DNA of 33,016 bases from the IMG/VR virus record IMGVR_UViG_2513237200_000006, one strand, 5' to 3'. Shown piece after piece: positions 3,901 to 31,625 of the stretch. The stretch is from a virus (lineage: Duplodnaviria > Heunggongvirae > Uroviricota > Caudoviricetes). Position 1 is the first letter of the stretch; the number at the start of each line of letters is the position of its first letter. A program made the translations under genes and the position numbers. The notes under the pieces are model-generated. The model was not told the origin of the DNA. It did no database searches and worked only from the letters and a program-made list of their open reading frames with translations.

Positions 3901-4172
3901 GTATTCGTATTGAAATTGGCGAACGTTATGTCGTTACCAGTGACAGCTTTCAGTTTATTCTCCACGAGAAAAAGAGAGCGGAAAGCGGTAAAAACGCCGG
4001 TCAGGAATGGCTGGCGGTGGTTGGTTATTACCCGAAATTAAGCCAGCTCGTTTCCGGCCTGATGCATCACGATATTCTGACCGGAAGCGCAAAGTCTTTT
4101 GCTGATTTAAACGCGCAGGTTGAGCAACTCAGCAAGCGTTGTTCAGAGGCTTTTGGCTCATATGGCCGTTAA
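3897..4172 (+). CDS. Hypothetical early protein (P2 orf83-like), 91 aa
   Basis: ORF whose start overlaps the orf82 stop. Its 3' end overlaps the start of gene A. Confidence 0.5.
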   Translation: MSIRIEIGERYVVTSDSFQFILHEKKRAESGKNAGQEWLAVVGYYPKLSQLVSGLMHHDILTGSAKSFADLNAQVEQLSKRCSEAFGSYGR

Positions 4173-6438
4173 AGCCTCCGGGCGTTTTGTCCCTCCGTCA
4201 GCATTTGCCGCAGGCACCGGTAAGGCGTTTACCGGTGCTTATGCATGGAACGCGCCACGCGAGGCTGTCGGGCGCGAAAGACCCCTTACACGTGACGAGA
4301 TGCGTCAGGTGCAAGGTGTTTTATCCACGATTAACCGCCTGCCTTACTTTTTGCGCTCGCTGTTTACTTCACGCTATGACTACATCCGGCGCAATAAAAG
4401 CCCGGTACACGGGTTTTATTTCCTCACATCCACTTTTCAGCGTCGTTTATGGCCGCGCATTGAGCGTGTGAATCAGCGCCATGAAATGAACACCGACGCG
4501 TCGTTGCTGTTTCTGGCAGAGCGTGACCAGTATGCGCGTCTGCCGGGGATGAATGACAAGGAGCTGAAAAAGTTTGCCGCCCGTATCTCATCGCAGCTTT
4601 TCATGATGTATGAGGAACTCTGCGATGCCTGGGTGGATGCGCATGGCGAAAAAGAATCGCTGTTTACGGATGAGGCGCAGGCGCATCTGTATGGTCATGT
4701 TGCTGGCGCTGCACGTGCTTTCAATATTTCCCCGCTTTACTGGAAAAAATACCGTAAAGGACAGATGACCACGAGGCAGGCATATTCTGCCATTGCCCGT
4801 CTGTTTAACGATGAGTGGTGGACTCATCAGCTTAAAGGCCAGCGTATGCGCTGGCATGAAGCGTTACTGATAGCTGTCGGGGAGGTCAATAAAGACCGTT
4901 CTCCTTATGCCAGTAAACACGCCATTCGTGATGTGCGTGCGCGCCGCCAGGCAAATCTGGAATTTCTTAAATCGTGTGACCTTGAAAATAGGGAAACCGG
5001 CGAGCGCATCGACCTTATCAGTAAGGTGATGGGCAGTATTTCTAATCCTGAAATTCGCCGGATGGAGCTGATGAACACCATTGCCGGTATTGAGCGTTAC
5101 GCCGCTGCAGAGGGTGATGTGGGGATGTTTATCACGCTGACCGCGCCGTCAAAGTATCATCCGACACGTCAGGTAGGAAAAGGCGAAAGTAAAACCGTGC
5201 AGCTTAATCACGGCTGGAACGATGAGGCATTTAATCCAAAGGATGCGCAGCGTTATCTCTGCCGTATCTGGAGCCTGATGCGCACGGCATTCAAGGATAA
5301 TGATTTACAGGTCTACGGTTTGCGTGTCGTCGAGCCACACCACGACGGAACGCCGCACTGGCATATGATGCTTTTTTGTAATCCACGCCAGCGTAACCAG
5401 ATTATCGAAATCATGCGTCGCTATGCGCTCAAAGAGGATGGCGATGAAAGAGGAGCCGCGCGAAACCGTTTTCAGGCAAAACACCTTAACCGGGGCGGTG
5501 CTGCGGGATATATCGCGAAATACATTTCAAAAAACATCGACGGCTATGCACTGGATGGTCAGCTCGATAACGACACCGGCAGGCCGCTGAAAGACACTGC
5601 AGCGGCTGTTACCGCATGGGCGTCAACGTGGCGCATCCCGCAATTTAAAACGGTTGGCCTGCCGACAATGGGGGCTTACCGTGAACTACGCAAATTGCCT
5701 CGCGGCGTCAGCATTGCTGATGAGTTTGACGAGCGCGTCGAGGCTGCACGCGCCGCCGCAGACAGTGGTGATTTTGCGTTGTATATCAGCGCGCAGGGTG
5801 GGGCAAATGTCCCGCGCGATTGTCAGACTGTCAGGGTCGCCCGTAGCCCGTCGGATGACGTTAACGAGTACGAGGAAGAGGTCGAGAGAGTGGTCGGCAT
5901 TTACGCGCCGCATCTCGGCGCGCGTCATATTCATATCACCAGAACGACGAACTGGCGCATTGTGCCGAAAGTTCCGGTCGTCGAGCCTTTGACTTTAAAA
6001 AGCGGCATCGCCGCGCCTCGGAGTCCTGTCAATAACTGTGGAAAGCTCACCGGTGGTGATACTTCGTTACCGGCTCCCACACCTTCTGAGCACGCCGCAG
6101 CAGTGCTTAATCTGGTAGATGACGGTGTTATCGAATGGAGTGACCCGGAGGTCGTGATGGTGCTCAGGGGCGCATTAAAACACGGACTGAGAACACCAAA
6201 TCGTCAGCAAAGAAACGGAATCCCGTTAAAACCGCATGAAATTGCACCATCTGCCAGACTGACCAGGTCTGAACGATTGCAAATTACCCGTATCCGCGTT
6301 GACCTCGCTCAGAACGGTATCAGGCCGCAACGATGGGAGCTTGAGGCGCTGGCGCGTGGCGCGACCGTAAATTATGACGGGAAAAAATTCACGTATCCGG
6401 TTGCTGATGAGTGGCCGGGGTTCTCGTTACCCATTTGA
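4162..6438 (+). CDS. A: Replication initiation protein A (rolling-circle nicking endonuclease), about 758 aa from ATG 4162
   Basis: Large ORF. From the internal Met the N-terminus reads MAVKASGRFVPPSAFAAGTGK…, which matches P2 gpA as I recall it. Contains …EPHHDGTPHWHMMLF… (HUH-type metal-binding motif) and …AAGYIAKYISKNIDGY… (catalytic tyrosine region). Confidence 0.9.
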   Translation: MAVKASGRFVPPSAFAAGTGKAFTGAYAWNAPREAVGRERPLTRDEMRQVQGVLSTINRLPYFLRSLFTSRYDYIRRNKSPVHGFYFLTSTFQRRLWPRIERVNQRHEMNTDASLLFLAERDQYARLPGMNDKELKKFAARISSQLFMMYEELCDAWVDAHGEKESLFTDEAQAHLYGHVAGAARAFNISPLYWKKYRKGQMTTRQAYSAIARLFNDEWWTHQLKGQRMRWHEALLIAVGEVNKDRSPYASKHAIRDVRARRQANLEFLKSCDLENRETGERIDLISKVMGSISNPEIRRMELMNTIAGIERYAAAEGDVGMFITLTAPSKYHPTRQVGKGESKTVQLNHGWNDEAFNPKDAQRYLCRIWSLMRTAFKDNDLQVYGLRVVEPHHDGTPHWHMMLFCNPRQRNQIIEIMRRYALKEDGDERGAARNRFQAKHLNRGGAAGYIAKYISKNIDGYALDGQLDNDTGRPLKDTAAAVTAWASTWRIPQFKTVGLPTMGAYRELRKLPRGVSIADEFDERVEAARAAADSGDFALYISAQGGANVPRDCQTVRVARSPSDDVNEYEEEVERVVGIYAPHLGARHIHITRTTNWRIVPKVPVVEPLTLKSGIAAPRSPVNNCGKLTGGDTSLPAPTPSEHAAAVLNLVDDGVIEWSDPEVVMVLRGALKHGLRTPNRQQRNGIPLKPHEIAPSARLTRSERLQITRIRVDLAQNGIRPQRWELEALARGATVNYDGKKFTYPVADEWPGFSLPI

Positions 6439-6698: not shown

Positions 6699-6728
6699 AA
6701 AAAAACCACCCTGGCAGGTGGTTTTTTT
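6699..6728. terminator. Bidirectional rho-independent terminator (A7-CCACC-CTGGCA-GGTGG-T7)
   Basis: Perfect hairpin flanked by a 7-A run on one side and a 7-T run on the other. Lies downstream of gene A and of the minus-strand small ORF. Confidence 0.7.
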
Positions 6729-6740
6729 GTTTGAAGCATA

Positions 6741-6854
6741 TTAAAGCATAATGCTGACATTGATATTACTGACGTTTACTGACAAACCACTTGGACTACC
6801 GTTTGGATAGCCAAAGAGGGCCAGAACGAGAATGCAGTAATAGCATTTCTTCAT
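6741..6854 (-). CDS. Possible small hydrophobic peptide (37 aa, MKKCYYCILVLALFGYPNG…)
   Basis: ATG at 6852-6854 (minus strand) preceded by a perfect AGGAGG with 5-nt spacing. Hydrophobic N-terminal segment. Followed by the bidirectional terminator. No homology asserted. Confidence 0.3.
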   Translation of the reverse strand: MKKCYYCILVLALFGYPNGSPSGLSVNVSNINVSIML

Positions 6855-6932: not shown

Positions 6933-7332
6933 CCCTGAAATAATGCTCTGTTTAAACGCAAAGTGATTTGGCATATCACCGAACAGAGAGCCGGAAAAAC
7001 ACAACATATAGTATGTCGTTGTTTCTAGACATACATTCTATGTTGTGTAACAAGGGCTTTGCATTAAACATGTTTGAGATTTTATTGATGTAGCTCAAAG
7101 TAAAAAACAGAGACTACGGATGATAAGGTCTTGAAAGCAATGTAAATTTTTTAAAGTTGCCAATTGCTTAAAAATGTACAGTTGCGGTATGGCGTACTTA
7201 AAAAGCTATGCATGCAACAAGTGAATGTTTTTGCATGCGCTGGGGATGTCCGTTCAGGCTGCGTGCGGTCAGGACTGGTGCGGATCCATAGTATCTATGC
7301 AACTGCATTAAAACCGCCCCGTGAAGCGGGCG

Positions 7333-7351
7333 GGCGAGGCGGGGAAAGCAC
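7333..7351 (+). other. cos: cos: 19-nt cohesive-end sequence GGCGAGGCGGGGAAAGCAC
   Basis: Exact match to the P2 cohesive-end 19-mer as I recall it. Lies between gene A and the portal gene Q, as expected for a P2 prophage. Confidence 0.75.
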
Positions 7352-7602
7352 CGCGCTCATGCAATGTGAAAATGTAATACCGATAGACTTACCGTTTCAG
7401 AGTTAGGATGTTCATCATATTGAAGTAACATACGAGAGATTCAGCAGAGCGCAACAAGTTTGAGAAAACAGTCCATATATCTTAACCTATTAGGACTGAC
7501 GGAAAATGAAGCACTATTCTTCGTGGTTATTTAGTATAGTATTGACTTTTCAACACGATCAATGGTTTGATCAGTTCGTATGTAATTGATTAAGGAAACT
7601 CA

Positions 7603-9036
7603 ATGAAAAAGCAAAGTGAAATTAACGTAAAAAAATTAGCATCATGGAGATTTTCATTTAAAAACATTGGGTGTATCTCTACAGGAGAAATTAATGCAAA
7701 ACCTTTAACGCTTTTATGCGGAAAAAATAATACTGGTAAAACATGGGTTATGTATGGGTTATATGGCTTCCTAAATATGCCATCACCATCTTTAAAATTG
7801 CCTCAAGTTGCAAATTTTGCCAAAACTCTTCGTGAAAATGGTAAGTTTGAATTAGATGTAATTGAGTGGATAAAAGATAATTTTACGTTAATCAAAAGAG
7901 AATTTAATAAAGATTCATCTTTAATGCTTAAAGATGTATTCAACACTAATGATAAGGAAATTTTTTCTAATTCAACATTTGACTGGGTTATAGATGAAGA
8001 ATCATTAGTATCAAGTGTTTATGAAAAAAAATTGGATGTTAGCCTCGTCATAGGAACCGGCAAAAAAGAAGTAATGCTATTATCCAAAGATAAAAATAGC
8101 AATATCATACAAATGACGCTGCTAGATTCTGCTTTTCCCAGAATTGATGGGTTTATAAACTTAACTCTAAGTCAGTTATTAAAGATAGAGTATGATGAAA
8201 GCCCAGCATTTTTAATTCCCGCAGAAAGAAATGGCTTGCACCTTTTTTTCAATGAATTAAGTTCCAGAAGAACTGCGTTATTGCACCACGCCTCAAAAGA
8301 ACAGTTCGATCTGAACTCACTATTAATGGATGTAATGAAGTCTAAGTATTCTGCTCCTATAGCAAATTACATAGACTGGCTTAATGAAATTAAGGTTAAT
8401 AGGAAAAATAAAAATGGCCAATTTCATAAATTAGCAGAAGAAGTAAAAAAAATAATTTCAGGAAAATATTCAGTTGATCCTGAAGGGCAGATTTATTTTT
8501 CAACGTATAAGAAAGGTAAGACACCTGCAAGTAAAATTGAACTTCATTTATCGTCATCCACTGTTAAAAGTTTGTTTGGCCTGTGGTTTTATTTAGAGCA
8601 CCAAGCAAAAACTGGTGATATTTTAATGATTGACGAACCCGAGTTAAATTTACACCCGTCAAATCAGCGAGTAATTGCAAGATTTTTAGCAAAGCTAGTT
8701 AACTCTGGTATTCGGGTTATTGTTAGTACTCACAGTGATTATTTTGTGAAAGAAATCAATAGCTTGATTATGTTGCATGGCGTTTCTGAAAATATGATTG
8801 AAAAACGAAACGCTATCATGCAGAAGCAAGGGATTAGCATCGACTCAATTTTAGACTCTAACCTAGTCGCTGCGTATTTATTTGATAATGGCTCAGTCAA
8901 TGAAATGCAGAAGTCAAATGAAGGGATTAATGCTGTAACTTTTGATGAAGTAATTAATGCCATTAATGACGATAATGATGAAATATATTACTCCTTGGTG
9001 GAGAATGCCTCTGATAGTGAGGATGTAGATGAGTAA
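7603..9036 (+). CDS. Cargo protein 1: ABC/OLD-family (AAA_21-like) ATPase without a nuclease domain, 477 aa
   Basis: Walker A LLCGKNNTGKT near the N-terminus; signature-like HLSSST; Walker B/D-loop ILMIDEPELNLHP; H-loop VSTHSDYF; long insert between Walker A and B; acidic C-terminal tail. Codon usage is strongly AT-rich compared with the phage backbone. Confidence 0.8.
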   Translation: MKKQSEINVKKLASWRFSFKNIGCISTGEINAKPLTLLCGKNNTGKTWVMYGLYGFLNMPSPSLKLPQVANFAKTLRENGKFELDVIEWIKDNFTLIKREFNKDSSLMLKDVFNTNDKEIFSNSTFDWVIDEESLVSSVYEKKLDVSLVIGTGKKEVMLLSKDKNSNIIQMTLLDSAFPRIDGFINLTLSQLLKIEYDESPAFLIPAERNGLHLFFNELSSRRTALLHHASKEQFDLNSLLMDVMKSKYSAPIANYIDWLNEIKVNRKNKNGQFHKLAEEVKKIISGKYSVDPEGQIYFSTYKKGKTPASKIELHLSSSTVKSLFGLWFYLEHQAKTGDILMIDEPELNLHPSNQRVIARFLAKLVNSGIRVIVSTHSDYFVKEINSLIMLHGVSENMIEKRNAIMQKQGISIDSILDSNLVAAYLFDNGSVNEMQKSNEGINAVTFDEVINAINDDNDEIYYSLVENASDSEDVDE

Positions 9037-9601
9037 TATTATCAATGTAATACAAAGTTGCATCGATCCTACATTTCAATTAATGCGAGAGCAGGAATGC
9101 TGGGTTGTATGCGAAGAGAACCCAGGTGCTACAAATAAAAAATTACTGGTAAACGGAAATGGTATCTATGGATTTTCGCTAGATTCTAATAGTATTTCTA
9201 AACCAGTCTGGAAATTTTTAAAATCTTCTGCTTTACCAGGAGTATGCTCTGTTTGTGATGGAATTTTTGTTACGTCGCACAAAGACGTAGATTATTTTAT
9301 CGTAATAGATCTCAAATCTTATAACTCAAATGGTGCGGCTAAACAGGTAGTTACTGGCATTCATTTTTGTAAGTGGCTATATTCTGTATTGAATTTACAT
9401 GGGCATTTGTCAAGAAAAGTGGATTACATTGGTGTAATAAGTAAATTATCGAGGAGGCAGCAATCAGCTAAAAAAACAACTGTTCGCTCGCAATTGCCTC
9501 CTCCTGAAATTTGCTATAATTATCCTGTGTTTACATTGGAAAACTATAACAGATTATCACTGGCGCATATTTGTGACTTTATATACAATATGAAAAAATA
9601 A
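9029..9601 (+). CDS. Cargo protein 2: 190-aa protein of unknown function, possible PD-(D/E)xK-like or TOPRIM-like nuclease
   Basis: Start ATG overlaps the stop of the ATPase gene (ATGAGTAA), indicating translational coupling. Contains E-rich N-terminal strand (WVVCEEN), D in …VCDGIFV… followed 17 residues later by IVIDLK (a (D/E)xK-like motif), and a DVD triplet. The fold assignment is inference only. Confidence 0.6.
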   Translation: MSNIINVIQSCIDPTFQLMREQECWVVCEENPGATNKKLLVNGNGIYGFSLDSNSISKPVWKFLKSSALPGVCSVCDGIFVTSHKDVDYFIVIDLKSYNSNGAAKQVVTGIHFCKWLYSVLNLHGHLSRKVDYIGVISKLSRRQQSAKKTTVRSQLPPPEICYNYPVFTLENYNRLSLAHICDFIYNMKK

Positions 9602-9659
9602 AATCCTGCAATTATTAGCCCCGGCAAATGCTAGGGCTAATTATCATCTAAATATTGGG

Positions 9660-10688
9660 TTAATTATCGTCTAAAGAGTAATTTTTGAATTGAATAACTT
9701 CGGCGCTGAGCCAGCCGTTTATCTCGCGGATCCTGTCCTGTAGCGGGATAAGCTCATTGCGGACAAAGACCTTTGCCACTTTCTCAATATCACCCAGTGA
9801 CCCGACGTTCTCCGGCTTGCCGCCCATCAACTGAAAGGGGATGCGGTGCGCGTCCAGCAGGTCAGCGGCGCTGGCTTTTTTGATATTAAAAAAATCGTCC
9901 TTCGTCGCCACTTCACTGAGGGGGATAATTTTAATGCCGTCGGCTTTCCCCTGTGGGGCATAGAGAAACAGGTTTTTAAAGTTGTTGCGGCCTTTCGACT
10001 TGACCATGTTTTCGCGAAGCATTTCGATATCGTTGCGATCCTGCACGGCATCAGTGACGTACATGATGTATCCGGCATGAGCGCCGTTTTCGTAATACTT
10101 GCGGCGGAACAGCGTGGCTGACTCATTCAGCCAGGCAGAGTTAAGGGCGCTGAGATATTCCGGCAGGCCGTACAGCTCCTGATTGATATCCGGCTCCAGC
10201 AGGTGAAACACGGAGCCGGGCGCGAAGGCTGTCGGCTCGTTGAAGGACGGCACCCACCAGTAAACATCCTCCTCCACGCCACGGCGGGTATATTTTGCCG
10301 GCGAGGTTTCCAGCCTGATAACCTTACCGGTGGTGCTGTAACGCTTTTCCAGAAACGCATTACCGAACACCAGAAAATCCAGCACAAAACGGCTGAAATC
10401 CTGCTGGGAAAGCCACGGGTGCGGGATAAACGTTGAAGCCAGAATATTACGTTTGACGTAAATCGGTGAGCTGTGATGCACGGCAGCACGCAGGCTTTTC
10501 GCCAGACCGGTAAAGCTGACCGGTGGCTCATACCATCTGCCGTTACTGATGCACTCGACGTAATCCAGAATGTCACGCCGGTCGAGTACCGGCACCGGCT
10601 CACCAAAGGTGAATGCCTCCATTTTCGGGGCGCTGGCGGTCATTTTTTTTGCCGCAGGTTGCGGTGTTTTCCCTTTTTTCTTGCTCAT
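9660..10688 (-). CDS. Q: Portal protein Q, 342 aa
   Basis: Leftward gene paired with P, as in P2. Length close to P2 gpQ. Start overlaps the P stop by 1 nt. Confidence 0.88.
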   Translation of the reverse strand: MSKKKGKTPQPAAKKMTASAPKMEAFTFGEPVPVLDRRDILDYVECISNGRWYEPPVSFTGLAKSLRAAVHHSSPIYVKRNILASTFIPHPWLSQQDFSRFVLDFLVFGNAFLEKRYSTTGKVIRLETSPAKYTRRGVEEDVYWWVPSFNEPTAFAPGSVFHLLEPDINQELYGLPEYLSALNSAWLNESATLFRRKYYENGAHAGYIMYVTDAVQDRNDIEMLRENMVKSKGRNNFKNLFLYAPQGKADGIKIIPLSEVATKDDFFNIKKASAADLLDAHRIPFQLMGGKPENVGSLGDIEKVAKVFVRNELIPLQDRIREINGWLSAEVIQFKNYSLDDN

Positions 10689-12460
10689 CAGTAAAACTCC
10701 AGAATGGTGGATGTCAGCGGGGTGCTGATACCGGCGGTGAGTGGCTCATTTAACAGGGCGTGCATGGTCGCCCAGGCGAGGTCGGCGTGGCTGGCTTCCT
10801 CGCTGCGGCTGGCCTCATAGGTGGCACTGCGTCCGCTGCTGGTCATGGTCTTGCGGATAGCCATAAACGAGCTGGTGATGTCGGTGGCGCTGACGTCATA
10901 TTCCAGACAGCCACGGCGGATAACGTCTTTTGCCTTGAGCACCATTGCGGTTTTCATTTCCGGCGTGTAGCGGATATCGCGCGCGGCGGGATAGAACGAG
11001 CGCACGAGCTGGAACACGCCGACACCGAGGCCGGTGGCATCAATTCCGATGTATTCGACGTTGTATTTTTCGGTGAGTTTGCGGATGGATTCCGCCTGGG
11101 TGGCAAAGTCCATGCCTTTCCACTGGTGACGCTCAAGTATTCTGAATTTGCCACCGGCCACCACCGGCGGTGCCAGTACCACGCATCCGGCGCTGTCGCC
11201 ACGGTGTGACGGGTCGTAACCAATCCATACCGGACGTGAGCCGAACGGATTTGCGGCAAACGGCGCATAGTCTTCCCATTCTTCCAGCGTGTCGACCATG
11301 CAGCGTTGCAGCTCCTCGAACGGGAACACCGATGCCTTGTCGTCAACAAATTCACACATGAACAGGTTTTTAAAATCGTCGGCGCTGTTTTCGCGTTTGA
11401 GCTGCTCAATGTCGAACAGAGTGCAGCCACCTTTCAGGGCGTCCTCAATGGTGACAATCTGCCGCCACTGGCCGTCCGCACAGAGAAGACCTCCGGCAAG
11501 GGCGTTATGACTGACGTCGATTTCCACGCGTTCGGCGGCGCTGGCGCGTCCCCGGTTAAACAGTTCACCGGACCAGAACGGGTAGGCGTCGTGCGCCAGC
11601 GTGGATGGGGTGGAGAAATAGGTCGAGCGCAGGTGACTCTGTGAGGCCATACCTGATGCCACCTTACGGAGCACCTGAAAATTCGGGATCCAGAAAATCT
11701 CGTCGACGTACAGGTCGCCGTTATGGCTCTGCGCGGTGTTGGAGTTGGTGCCGAGAAAAATCAGTTTTGCGCCGTTATTGCCCAGGACAATTGGGTCACC
11801 GGTCAGGTCAACGTCAACCAGCCGGGCAAAGGCGATGATGTATTCGCGGAACACATACGCCTGCGTTTTACTGGCCGACAGAAAAATCTGGTTATGACCG
11901 GTTTTCAGGGCGCGCAGCAGCGCCTCGCGGGAAAAATAAAACGTCGCGCCAATCTGGCGGGATTTCAGGATATCGCGGATGCGGTGCTCAAGCCCGGCGC
12001 GATACCAGTGCAACTGATATTCGAAAGACTGCTCAAAGAAAATCTGCTCCAGCTTTTCGATGGCCTCGTCACTGAAAAAATTCTTTTTCGGTTTGCGACG
12101 CCCGCCTTTGTTGCGGTTAGCGACGTTCGGATTAAGGTCTGCCTCGTTGCCGGTCTGACTGTAACGGTTGACCCGTGCCAGTCGTTCAATCTGGCGTCCG
12201 AGCAGGTCAATTTCCTTGAAGTCACCGCCGGTTTTCTGCGGTTTGATGATGAGCTGGGTCAGCCGCGCTTCCAGACTCATTTCGACACGGCTGATGGGGG
12301 CAACGCTGTCCCAGCCGTCGCGCTGTTTCCAGCTCTGCACCGTCGGGCGTTTCATCTGCAACATGGCGGCAATCTGCGGCACGGAAAATCCCTGCCAGTA
12401 CAGCAGCGCCGCCTGACGACGCGGGTCGTGTAAAAGAGTGGTGTCTGTGGTGATGGTCAT
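10688..12460 (-). CDS. P: Terminase large subunit P (ATPase/nuclease), 590 aa from ATG 12460
   Basis: Large leftward ORF. Internal Met start (MTITTDTTLLHD…) has a GAGGT RBS. The ORF track's upstream extension is rejected. Position and length match P2 gpP. Confidence 0.88.
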   Translation of the reverse strand: MTITTDTTLLHDPRRQAALLYWQGFSVPQIAAMLQMKRPTVQSWKQRDGWDSVAPISRVEMSLEARLTQLIIKPQKTGGDFKEIDLLGRQIERLARVNRYSQTGNEADLNPNVANRNKGGRRKPKKNFFSDEAIEKLEQIFFEQSFEYQLHWYRAGLEHRIRDILKSRQIGATFYFSREALLRALKTGHNQIFLSASKTQAYVFREYIIAFARLVDVDLTGDPIVLGNNGAKLIFLGTNSNTAQSHNGDLYVDEIFWIPNFQVLRKVASGMASQSHLRSTYFSTPSTLAHDAYPFWSGELFNRGRASAAERVEIDVSHNALAGGLLCADGQWRQIVTIEDALKGGCTLFDIEQLKRENSADDFKNLFMCEFVDDKASVFPFEELQRCMVDTLEEWEDYAPFAANPFGSRPVWIGYDPSHRGDSAGCVVLAPPVVAGGKFRILERHQWKGMDFATQAESIRKLTEKYNVEYIGIDATGLGVGVFQLVRSFYPAARDIRYTPEMKTAMVLKAKDVIRRGCLEYDVSATDITSSFMAIRKTMTSSGRSATYEASRSEEASHADLAWATMHALLNEPLTAGISTPLTSTILEFY

Positions 12461-12633
12461 GAATACCTCGCCGTGATGAATACACGGCAAGGCTACTGAG
12501 TCGCGCCCCGCGATTCGCTAAGGTGCTGTTGTGCCAGTGATAAGCCATCCGGGACTGATGGCGGAGGATGCGCATCGTCGGGAAACTGATGCCGACATGT
12601 GACTCCTCTAATCACTATTCAGGACTCCTGACA

Positions 12634-22677: not shown

Positions 22678-23270
22678 TGAAACCTGTTTTTGATGAAAAT
22701 GGGCTGGCTACAGTGCCGGGTGATATGCGTTGTTTTTATTATGATGCAGTAACGTCTGAATATACGGGCTGGTCTGATGAATATATTAATACTGGCGTAA
22801 GTATGCCCGCCTGTTCCACTGGTATTGACCCGGACGAAAACATTCCGGGAAGAGTGGCAGTATTTACAGGTAAGGGATGGAGCCATGAGGAAGACCATCG
22901 CAATGAGACTGTTTACTCAATCGAAAATGGCGCAGCTGTTACAGTGGATTATATCGGTGCCATCAAAAACGGTTATGTCACGCTTTCACCGTTAACGCCA
23001 TATGATAAATGGGATGGTGAGAAATGGGTGACAGATACTGAGGCACAACACGGTGCCGCAGTAGAAGCGGCAGAAGCACAGCGCCAGTCACTGATTGATG
23101 CAGCAATGGCTTCCATTAGTCTGATTCAGCTGAAATTACAGGCCGGGCGGAAACTGACGCAGGCAGAAACAACCCGGCTTAACGCTGTGCTGGATTACAT
23201 TGACGCGGTGACGGCAACAGATACCAGCACCGCGCCGGATATCATCTGGCCTGAACAGCCGGAGGCGTAG
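22677..23270 (+). CDS. G: Tail fibre assembly chaperone (G/Tfa, U-type), 197 aa
   Basis: C-terminal …LDYIDAVTATDTSTAPDIIWPEQPEA is a typical Tfa signature. Immediately follows H inside the invertible segment. Confidence 0.85.
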   Translation: MKPVFDENGLATVPGDMRCFYYDAVTSEYTGWSDEYINTGVSMPACSTGIDPDENIPGRVAVFTGKGWSHEEDHRNETVYSIENGAAVTVDYIGAIKNGYVTLSPLTPYDKWDGEKWVTDTEAQHGAAVEAAEAQRQSLIDAAMASISLIQLKLQAGRKLTQAETTRLNAVLDYIDAVTATDTSTAPDIIWPEQPEA

Positions 23271-23682
23271 GCCATTCAATATCTGGAGCACTGGAAATAT
23301 CAACCATTTCCAGTGCGTCCAGATAATCAAGCCATGAATTATATTGCGCCAGTTCCTCACCTTTCAGACGACCAATAGCAGCCTTTCCTAGCCACTGCTT
23401 ACTGTTAATATATTCATTAACTCGATTTATGAGTGCCTGTTTTTTTCGTTCCGCTTCTGACAGTTGTTCTTCATGAGTTAGCGGCGGTACGTCATCCCAT
23501 GCAGGATAGCCATCATCACCCGCAACTCTCACCTTCCCAGGAGGTGGGGACAGGTACTTAATAAATATATCCTCATCAACTTCAACTCCATTATGAGGCC
23601 ATAACCCAGACTCCTTATACTGACTTTCCAGAGTAAATGGGTAAAACATATTAGTTTTTGCATCGTAAAGATATTTACTCAT
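23242..23682 (-). CDS. Alternative tail fibre assembly chaperone (U'-type), 146 aa from ATG 23682
   Basis: Opposite-strand Tfa with C-terminal …LDYLDALEMVDISSAPDIEWPTPP. Internal Met start has an AGGA RBS. Convergent with G inside the invertible segment. Confidence 0.8.
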   Translation of the reverse strand: MSKYLYDAKTNMFYPFTLESQYKESGLWPHNGVEVDEDIFIKYLSPPPGKVRVAGDDGYPAWDDVPPLTHEEQLSEAERKKQALINRVNEYINSKQWLGKAAIGRLKGEELAQYNSWLDYLDALEMVDISSAPDIEWPTPPAVQAR

Positions 23683-23683
23683 T

Positions 23684-24046
23684 TTATCTTCCTGTAGCAA
23701 ACCAGCGGCAACCAGCGACAGTTGGAACATTGAAGGATGGATTTCCTTTATCAAGAGATCCCAGGTTCTCTGCTATGACATTTGAGTTAGTCAATTTATA
23801 GAATTGCCATACTGACATTTTCCCTGCCACAGGAGCCTGGTCATGTTCATTAATAGAAATGACGGCTGTCGGAAATGGGATAGGAAAATTAATCAAAACT
23901 TCATTTGTTGTGGCCTCAGTTAGCCCCCATTGTTCAATATAACCATCCGGGCTTCGCCTCCATCCCGTCGTTGTATCTCCCCCACACTCCCACGCTGACA
24001 TATCAGGAATTTGGTTTTGCCCGTTACCCACATCCCGTTTTGCCGC
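23684..24046 (-). CDS. Alternative tail fibre C-terminal segment (Sv'-like), promoterless and start-less in this orientation
   Basis: Minus-strand reading frame runs from the right crossover repeat (encoding …VGLGE…) to a stop at 23684, directly upstream of the U'-type tfa. Inversion would fuse it in frame to the H N-terminus. Confidence 0.7.
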   Translation of the reverse strand, partial: AAKRDVGNGQNQIPDMSAWECGGDTTTGWRRSPDGYIEQWGLTEATTNEVLINFPIPFPTAVISINEHDQAPVAGKMSVWQFYKLTNSNVIAENLGSLDKGNPSFNVPTVAGCRWFATGR

Positions 24047-24060
24047 TTCTCCCAAACCAA
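24046..24060. repeat. Right inversion crossover site (inverted copy of 22220-22234)
   Basis: CTTCTCCCAAACCAA is the exact reverse complement of the left site. Lies about 70 bp upstream of the invertase start. Confidence 0.75.
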
Positions 24061-24127
24061 CGTTTATGAAAATGCAGAGATAACGGGCAACTGGCATCAT
24101 CTCCGGTTTTTATTCAGGGGGATGCTC

Positions 24128-24721
24128 ATGCTTATTGGCTATGTACGCGTGTCAACAAATGACCAGAATACGGAATTGCAGCGTAACGCGCTGGAGTGCG
24201 CAGGATGTGAGCTGATTTTTGAGGACAAAATCAGCGGCACGAAGTCCGACAGGCCGGGACTGAAAAAACTGCTCAGGACATTATCGGAGGGGGATACACT
24301 GGTAGTCTGGAAGCTGGACCGGCTGGGGCGTAGTATGCGGCATCTGGTCATTCTGGTTGAGGAGCTGCGCGAACGCGGCGTTAATTTTCGCAGCCTGACG
24401 GATGCTATTGATACCAGCACGCCGATGGGGCGTTTTTTCTTTCATGTGATGGGTGCCCTGGCCGAAATGGAACGAGAACTCATTGTCGAGCGGACACGCG
24501 CCGGACTGGAAGCGGCCAGAGCCAAAGGTCGTATTGGTGGCAGACGACCGAAACTCACCGCGAGTGAGTGGGAGCAGGCCGGGCGTTTGCTGGCTGCAGG
24601 GGAGTCACGTCAACGCGTGGCACTGATTTTTGATATTGGTCTGTCCACGCTCTATAAAAAATTTCCCTCATCAGCGACAAAGAATAAATTGTGTCATCCC
24701 TTAGCCAACCGGGACAAATAG
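24128..24721 (+). CDS. Serine DNA invertase (Gin/Pin/Hin family), about 197 aa from ATG 24128
   Basis: N-terminus MLIGYVRVSTNDQNTELQRNAL… contains the catalytic Ser of the resolvase/invertase family and closely resembles Gin/Pin as recalled. C-terminal HTH (…GLSTLYKK…). The ORF track's upstream extension is rejected. Confidence 0.9.
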   Translation: MLIGYVRVSTNDQNTELQRNALECAGCELIFEDKISGTKSDRPGLKKLLRTLSEGDTLVVWKLDRLGRSMRHLVILVEELRERGVNFRSLTDAIDTSTPMGRFFFHVMGALAEMERELIVERTRAGLEAARAKGRIGGRRPKLTASEWEQAGRLLAAGESRQRVALIFDIGLSTLYKKFPSSATKNKLCHPLANRDK

Positions 24722-31482: not shown

Positions 31483-31510
31483 TAAAAAATAAGCCCGTGT
31501 AAGGGAGATT
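31483..31510. repeat. attR: attR core: 28-bp direct repeat identical to 476-503; doubles as the cyaR 3' end
   Basis: Exact repeat. Overlaps the 3' terminator portion of cyaR. Confidence 0.85.
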
Positions 31511-31570
31511 ACACAGGCTAAGGAGGTGGTTCCTGGTACAGCTAGCATTTTATGGGTTATGTTTTTCAGC
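31484..31570 (-). ncRNA. cyaR: Hfq-dependent sRNA CyaR (RyeE)
   Basis: The reverse complement reads GCTGAAAAACATAACCCATAAAATGCTAGCTGTACCAGGAACCACCTCCTTAGCCTGTGTAATCTCCCTTACACGGGCTTATTTTTT, matching CyaR as I recall it, including the CCACCTCCTTA seed and the terminator. Located next to yegQ as in E. coli. Confidence 0.85.
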
Positions 31571-31625
31571 GAAACGGATGATAACCTTAATAAATACAGC
31601 TGTATGTGATCGGTTTCTAAGAATT
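31571..31625 (-). promoter_or_regulatory. cyaR promoter with a probable class II CRP site (TTAGA-N6-TCACA on the minus strand, centred about -42) and -10 TATCAT
   Basis: Read from the sequence upstream of the cyaR 5' end. CRP dependence of cyaR is established knowledge. Exact site boundaries are approximate. Confidence 0.45.

Follow-up and report, generated by a model that had tools for sequence, protein, structure and literature searches.

The window analysed here, a 33,016-nucleotide stretch of DNA, contains two overlapping plus-strand open reading frames (ORFs), both opening with ATG, which encode proteins of 477 amino acids (gene 1, 7603..9036) and 190 amino acids (gene 2, 9029..9601) and together span 1999 bp. 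The two frames overlap by 8 nt (ATGAGTAA), with an AAGGA sequence located 8 nt 5' of the gene 1 ATG and a GAGGA sequence 7 nt 5' of that of gene 2. An earlier note on this DNA had described a gene pair at these positions and with this overlap, and both ORFs were recovered exactly there. The GC content of the module encompassing the pair (7352-9659) is 33.4%, versus 53.1% in the remaining window, making it the lowest-GC 2.3 kb stretch of the window (mean 0.520, sd 0.062) and confirming the AT-rich composition previously remarked upon. Relative to a copy in E. coli UTAK-5 that is 86.6% identical, gene 1 has a dN/dS ratio of 0.057 and gene 2 one of 0.277; purifying selection acts on each of the two ORFs, which are real genes.

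The module is delimited on its left by a cos-type 19-mer (GGCGAGGCGGGGAAAGCAC; 7333..7351, plus strand), followed by a non-coding operon leader (7352..7602, plus strand) that contains no regulator gene and is approximately 80% conserved with respect to the UTAK-5 variant. Since a simple sigma-70 scan of the leader upstream of gene 1 identified no strong plus-strand promoter, the assignment of a promoter region to this interval is presumptive. On the right, folding analysis outlined a hairpin (9614..9641) between the convergent stops of gene 2 (9601) and of the portal gene Q (9660), with energies of -15.6 kcal/mol on the plus strand and -16.4 kcal/mol on the minus strand, values that are not exceptional (z only about -1.7). 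Its stem is kept in the UTAK-5 variant, and the hairpin could possibly constitute a bidirectional terminator and the right boundary of the module, a role put forward only tentatively because a terminator scan made no call at this position.

The window is 100% identical to the chromosome of E. coli W, of which it represents a P2-like prophage, and the chromosomes of LY180 and KO11FL contain the module with its flanks at that same 100% identity. P2-like genes in the window include those encoding a gpA-type replication endonuclease (4120-6438) and, on the minus strand, the portal protein Q (9660-10688) and the terminase P (10688-12490), and the late genes present 96-97% identity with those of P2-like phages. 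The gene for the CyaR sRNA is found at 31487-31572, close to the right end of the window. The 19-mer at 7333-7351, which we take to be the P2 cohesive end (cos), has a single exact match in the window, with 0 expected by chance. The linear record of Yersinia phage VB-YPM-4 terminates exactly at window position 7332, and homology with other P2-like phages ends at approximately 7356. Together with the position of cos, these two boundaries place the cargo between cos and the stop codon of Q, an interval that in P2_2H1 amounts to only about 210 nt from the record start to the Q stop. The C-terminus of the portal is preserved at the protein level. The UTAK-5 variant presents an identical layout of cos, module and Q, with other genes in its A-to-cos segment, indicating that the two sides of cos vary independently.

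The P2 map has old and tin on the stretch from gene A to cos. The earlier note had positioned the module where P2 carries these two genes; judged against this map, the slot is a different one, with the module on the Q side of cos, and the placement holds for the broader gpA to gpQ interval. This interval corresponds to the hotspot of Rousset et al., already established as a site of defence genes (PMC9122126). The proposal that horizontal transfer brought the pair into the cos-proximal P2 hotspot as cargo is supported, with the added feature that cargo of the A-to-Q hotspot can occupy the Q side of cos, besides the A side. The module is carried by 19 of 5426 complete E. coli genomes, at an identity of at least 99% in 16 and of 86.6% in three, and all these copies are chromosomal. 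A tblastn search of phage records with gene 2 returned no match in the collection, and the corresponding search with the ATPase returned only 30%-identical genes, in Vibrio phages. Both window proteins are already included in PHROGs (phrog_13167 and phrog_14491), with the annotation "unknown function".

All the motifs that had been quoted for the two genes are present in their translations. In gene 1 these comprise GKNNTGKT (40-47), ILMIDEPELNLHP (340-352) and STHS (375-378). Comparison of 56 homologues revealed invariant residues in the Walker A (K46) and Walker B (D344-E345) motifs, the PAERNG segment (R209) and the H-loop (H377), as well as an invariant D-loop (LNLHP) and signature-like sequence (LHLSSSTVKS, 314-323). 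A C-terminal extension (approximately 395-466) is also conserved, with several residues from M435 to I461 invariant among the same homologues. Pfam searches identified AAA_15 (6e-26) and AAA_21 (8e-17) and no other domain. The best PADLOC match was PD-T4-4_A (PDLC04033, E 2.1e-112), aligning residues 16-465 with positions 2-458 of the 460 in the profile, followed by PDC-M47A (E 1.5e-81) and by weaker matches to AriA (1.8e-29), Old (2e-15), PtuA (4e-11) and GajA (3e-10). The AF2 model (pLDDT 79.5, pTM 0.81) presents the C-terminal 80 residues as a short alpha/beta extension, and its top Foldseek matches were the retron Eco8 complex, PtuA, AriA, GajA and Rad50. Pfam, PADLOC and Foldseek hence agree with the earlier assignment: gene 1 encodes an OLD-family ABC ATPase without a TOPRIM or other nuclease domain.

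The motifs present in gene 2 are SVCDG (74-78) and IVIDLKS (91-97). Pfam scans assigned gene 2 to no family and returned only noise for 67 members of the gene 2 family, and a profile of this family yielded no match among PDB sequences even at an E-value of 10. PADLOC matched gene 2 to PD-T4-4_B (PDLC04037, E 1.2e-15, 55.8 bits), aligning residues 2-155 with profile positions 3-160 of 190. A word-index protein search, performed both with the gene 2 sequence by itself and with a profile, retrieved 11 close clusters, all of them unnamed and from the Enterobacterales, and it was the exhaustive nature of a HMMER search that made the wider family visible, as 134 clusters of gene 2 relatives of about 180-200 amino acids. 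The PDLC04037 profile was matched by 66 of 67 diverse relatives (best E-value 2.8e-46).

Conservation across the 67 representatives is complete for D77 and Q106 and reaches at least 90% for D52, K96 and R143; at position 94 the window protein has D, versus E in the family consensus (IELKS). The signature D77...(D/E)94-x-K96...Q106 follows the classical D...(D/E)xK pattern with a hairpin spacing of 17 residues, and its conservation across the family upholds the reading of "D…17 aa…IVIDLK" as a PD-(D/E)xK motif. The DVD motif (residues 86-88) highlighted alongside it is conserved only among close enterobacterial relatives and not family-wide, and the TOPRIM-like alternative that had been contemplated for gene 2 found no support. 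The structure model of gene 2 is weak because it was built on an alignment of only 10 close sequences, and it resembles PD-(D/E)xK nucleases. These results suggest that gene 2 encodes a minimal PD-(D/E)xK-type putative nuclease effector, PD-T4-4_B, featuring D52, D77, D94-L-K96, K105-Q106 and R143.

The association between the two genes extends well beyond the window. ATPase homologues from Aeromonas, Acinetobacter and Vibrio, presenting 47-51% identity to gene 1, are each directly followed by an ORF of 183-186 amino acids that is 30-38% identical to gene 2 and also matches PD-T4-4_B. Eighty related loci, located with the ATPase alignment, were taken from species-representative genomes spanning the Proteobacteria, Campylobacterota, Firmicutes, Cyanobacteria, Bacteroidota, Latescibacterota and others. 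At 70 of these 80 loci the ATPase gene is followed at once, on the same strand, by a B-family ORF (approximately 185 amino acids), whose stop is located a median of 565 nt beyond that of the ATPase gene. Three of the remaining ten loci (L073, L080 and L088) present instead a short ORF with a D...ExK motif, which matches PDC-M47B in the two cases scanned (L073 and L088), and others are truncated or interrupted. In addition, a 4.8 kb Col-type plasmid of E. coli was confirmed to harbor a second subtype of PD-T4-4 (A, PDLC04032; B, PDLC04035), and similar ATPases were detected on further plasmids of 4.3-4.8 kb, three from E. coli and three from Klebsiella. The B protein of this subtype aligned motif for motif with the gene 2 family (hhalign probability 98%).

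The window encodes a full-length PD-T4-4_A match without a fused nuclease, adjoined on the same strand and in the order A then B by a 190-amino acid protein matching the PD-T4-4_B profile, with intact ATPase motifs and a PD-(D/E)xK signature. The earlier note had presented the pair as an undescribed system that could not be placed in a named family, and had proposed a PADLOC run as a check; the PADLOC profile search returned PD-T4-4_A and PD-T4-4_B, and by these profile assignments both proteins belong to a named and experimentally validated family. The kind of system is already known: a PADLOC-type scan would label the locus PD-T4-4, and defence by the family has been published. PD-T4-4 ("ATPase, nuclease") was obtained from ECOR58 in a functional screen with T4 as the selecting phage, and its validation relied on the native promoter (Vassallo et al. 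2022, PMC9519451; protein accessions RCO57999.1 and RCO57988.1). Protection against T4 by EcPD-T4-4 was confirmed by Ragucci et al., who classed the nuclease as PD-(D/E)xK, observed higher-order complexes by mass photometry and reported that the purified system cleaved 0 of 11 DNA substrates (10.1101/2025.07.10.664194). Further insight is provided by WonAB, a characterised relative from the WASA-1 prophage of Vibrio cholerae, whose activity depends on the two genes together, on the motifs of the ATPase and on the lysine of the nuclease. Inactivation of the WonAB ATPase results in loss of WonB levels, a predicted interaction joins WonB to the dimerised C-terminal extensions of WonA, and the system operates through lysis-independent abortive infection, after the start of phage DNA replication and without bulk DNA degradation (PMC12137116).

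We consider it highly probable that the pair is a PD-T4-4-family defence operon carried as cargo by a P2-like prophage, in which an ATPase licenses a nuclease in an abortive-type defence, and the previous proposal of a defence system is very probably correct. The gene structure, family membership, conserved catalytic residues, two-gene architecture, purifying selection and prophage location were observed at this locus, and the literature on its relatives provides the defence activity, the need for both proteins and their active sites, the formation of complexes and the abortive phenotype. The ATPase, as the putative sensor/regulator subunit, would probably dimerise head-to-tail around two ATP sites, or assemble into a higher oligomer, and hold the small partner through its own conserved C-terminal extension, with gene 2 presumably translated by coupling to gene 1. 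The complex would be inactive in an uninfected lysogen. Upon infection by a heterologous phage, the ATPase would sense a cue, and ATP binding or hydrolysis could then license the nuclease, which would halt development of the phage and, in an abortive infection, most likely sacrifice the infected cell, thereby protecting the lysogen population and, with it, the prophage. The substrate of the nuclease may be something other than bulk double-stranded DNA, since the negative DNA-cleavage results in the family leave room for an RNA or structure-specific target.

A bolder version of this proposal, which we deem unlikely, is that the E. coli W module represents a divergent, Enterobacterales-restricted PD-T4-4 subclade occupying an atypical cos-portal slot, with an effector acting perhaps on RNA, tRNA or a replication or packaging intermediate. 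The B protein is only 30-38% identical to its nearest non-enterobacterial partners, versus 47-51% for the ATPase. A target other than bulk double-stranded DNA would also explain both the lack of cleavage by EcPD-T4-4 and the arrest without DNA degradation described for WonAB. If this reading were true, E. coli W, a laboratory strain that is tractable and carries the prophage natively, could help identify the trigger and substrate of the family.

A different function altogether, with no phage defence in E. coli W, seems rather improbable to us. The pair could be a selfish toxin-antitoxin or addiction module, an inactive or silenced remnant, or a system that helps the prophage in some other conflict, such as one with P4-like satellites or plasmids. 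The Pfam annotation of AAA_21 as a "putative AbiEii toxin" type and the lack of a clear promoter would be in line with such a role, and so would the 4-5 kb Col-type plasmids of E. coli and Klebsiella on which a related subtype is the only cargo, an arrangement that fits a stabilisation function as well; furthermore, the defence role of the E. coli W allele is proposed by analogy with its relatives. Against this stand the strong purifying selection on both genes and their intact catalytic motifs, together with the demonstrated defence by family members (PMC9519451; 10.1101/2025.07.10.664194) and the location of the module in an established defence hotspot (PMC9122126).

Assignment to the sister family PDC-M47, a computational candidate combining the same ATPase clade with another small nuclease, is very improbable. 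Gene 1 does match PDC-M47A, some ATPase homologues (those of L073 and L088) have a PDC-M47B-type partner, and 10 of 67 B-family members weakly cross-match PDC-M47B. Gene 1 scores higher on PD-T4-4_A, however, and gene 2, unlike the L073 and L088 partners, matches PD-T4-4_B profiles only and no PDC-M47B profile.

Still less probable is that the pair represents another named OLD-ATPase system, such as PARIS (AriAB), Septu (PtuAB), Gabija or a class 1/2 OLD system, as hinted at by the weaker similarity of gene 1 to the AriA, Old, PtuA and GajA profiles and by the presence of PtuA, AriA and GajA among its structural neighbours. The PD-T4-4_A match is better by more than 80 orders of magnitude and covers the full length of the protein (2e-112, versus 1.8e-29 for AriA), whereas the Old, GajA and PtuA matches are confined to the Walker B region, the Old profile being matched only at positions 281-333 of 578. 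Pfam detects no fused TOPRIM domain in gene 1, and gene 2 matches no Pfam family and no AriB (DUF4435/TOPRIM), PtuB (HNH) or GajB profile, so that the PARIS-like or Septu-like architecture suggested earlier does not apply. Profile searches already refute this alternative. They likewise dispose of the notion, which we regard as negligible, that gene 1 is an ABC transporter ATPase and gene 2 an unrelated small protein, the outcome that had been set against a defence role: the NCBIfam transporter-ATPase matches are weak (E 1e-6 to 0.1), cover about 50 residues of the Walker B region and score at most 27 bits, far below the curated cut-offs of 130-520 bits, there is no adjoining permease or other membrane partner, and the full-length match is to OLD-type defence ATPases.

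The module can therefore be described as a natural P2-borne PD-T4-4 allele, and E. coli W, a widely used industrial strain, and its derivatives LY180 and KO11FL harbor a prophage-borne PD-T4-4, with possible consequences for their sensitivity to phages. As in the ECOR58 system, an ABC/OLD-type ATPase of about 460-475 amino acids is encoded first and a PD-(D/E)xK-type protein of about 185-200 amino acids second, and the ORF spans are similar (1999 bp here, 1973 bp in ECOR58). The carriers differ, with a P2-like prophage harboring the module between cos and Q in E. coli W and an ICE-like element doing so in ECOR58 (PMC9519451). In addition, the window B protein is of a divergent subtype (55.8 bits on PDLC04037), with close relatives only in the Enterobacterales. 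WonAB is likewise prophage-borne and combines an OLD-type ABC ATPase with a small PD-(D/E)xK nuclease, and its organisation has been likened to that of PD-T4-4, but it is distinguished, according to its description, by differences in Insert 1/2 and in the C-terminal extension of its ATPase (PMC12137116), and by an upstream regulator gene that has no counterpart in the window module. PDC-M47 shares the ATPase clade, the two-gene layout and a D...ExK partner of about 180 amino acids, which comes from another small-nuclease family, unmatched by gene 2. More broadly, P2 Old, GajA, AriAB and PtuAB also couple an OLD-family ABC ATPase acting as infection sensor to a nuclease, and Old and PARIS are found as well in cos-proximal P2/P4 hotspots (PMC9122126). 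Their effectors, fused or separate, are TOPRIM (Old, GajA and AriB) or HNH (PtuB) domains, whereas the effector encoded by the E. coli W module would be a separate, minimal PD-(D/E)xK protein.

The ATPase of the PD-T4-4 module belongs to a clade whose members do not all share the same type of partner. Beside some ATPases of this clade (loci L073, L088 and L080), a different short D...ExK protein, with the motif ECKRADFVII...YIEIKR, is encoded. The proteins of L073 (5395-5940, 181 aa) and L088 (5391-5951, 186 aa) match PDC-M47B, the PADLOC partner profile of a sister candidate family, and the 119-aa ORF of L080 (5355-5714) has the motif in common with both, the PDC-M47B scan having covered L073 and L088 only. 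Such pairings point to effector swapping or deep divergence inside a single ATPase lineage.

A second PD-T4-4 subtype (PDLC04032 for the ATPase and PDLC04035 for its partner) was located on a 4.8-kb E. coli Col-type plasmid (L090, NZ_CP051743.1, 1352-3350), where the annotation of the stretch examined adds just Rop, a protein with an HTH domain and one small hypothetical ORF. A comparison that covered the ATPases found similar ones on an E. coli plasmid of identical size (H68) and on further plasmids (H71-H74), namely one of 4.5 kb from E. coli and three of 4.26 kb from Klebsiella. The module of the window itself also occurs in two assemblies labelled 'DH5alpha' (NZ_CP026085.1 and NZ_CM135829.1), where it is 100% identical to the E. 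coli W copy; we would not expect this module in K-12 derivatives, and the strain labels of both records may be wrong.

Two further regions of the window present features of their own. A Resolvase+HTH_7-type serine recombinase (24011-24718, plus strand) shares the interval that separates the tail-fibre assembly gene from the sheath gene with two features of the opposite strand, a second tail-fibre C-terminal fragment (23687-24100) and a second tail-fibre assembly gene (23245-23754). This segment (23245-24718), in the position of the second P2 variable locus (Z/fun), resembles an invertible host-range switch of the Gin/Cin type. Towards the window's right end, the CyaR/RyeE sRNA gene (31487-31572, minus strand; Rfam RF00112, 100.7 bits) probably marks the prophage attachment site or chromosomal flank.

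Within the hotspot, the segment between gene A and cos is independently variable: in the UTAK-5 variant it is different. It contains an unannotated 37-aa hydrophobic ORF, MKKCYYCILVLALFGYPNGSPSGLSVNVSNINVSIML (6744-6854, minus strand), with an AGGAGG ribosome-binding site and followed by a strong bidirectional terminator hairpin (6700-6731; -19.1 kcal/mol, z -4.7). The ORF returned no PHROG match. The 500-bp segment encompassing it recurs in 150 of the 5426 E. coli genomes and carries no annotated feature in the records listed. The ORF might encode a toxin or a small membrane peptide.

In the packaged DNA the cargo sits at the left end, with cos on one side and the portal gene Q on the other. 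The cohesive-end 19-mer maps to 7333-7351, the cargo genes to 7603-9601 and the Q stop to 9660, and the homology break of the cargo falls about 4 nt past the 19-mer. In a RefSeq phage record (L091, NC_049386.1), the opening ~31 bases, GTCGGCAGCGTCAGATGTGTATAAGAGACAG (1-31), abut a partial cos sequence and look like a Nextera transposase adapter remaining in the assembly. In P2-like phages such as P2_2H1, just ~200 nt separate the record start from the Q stop.
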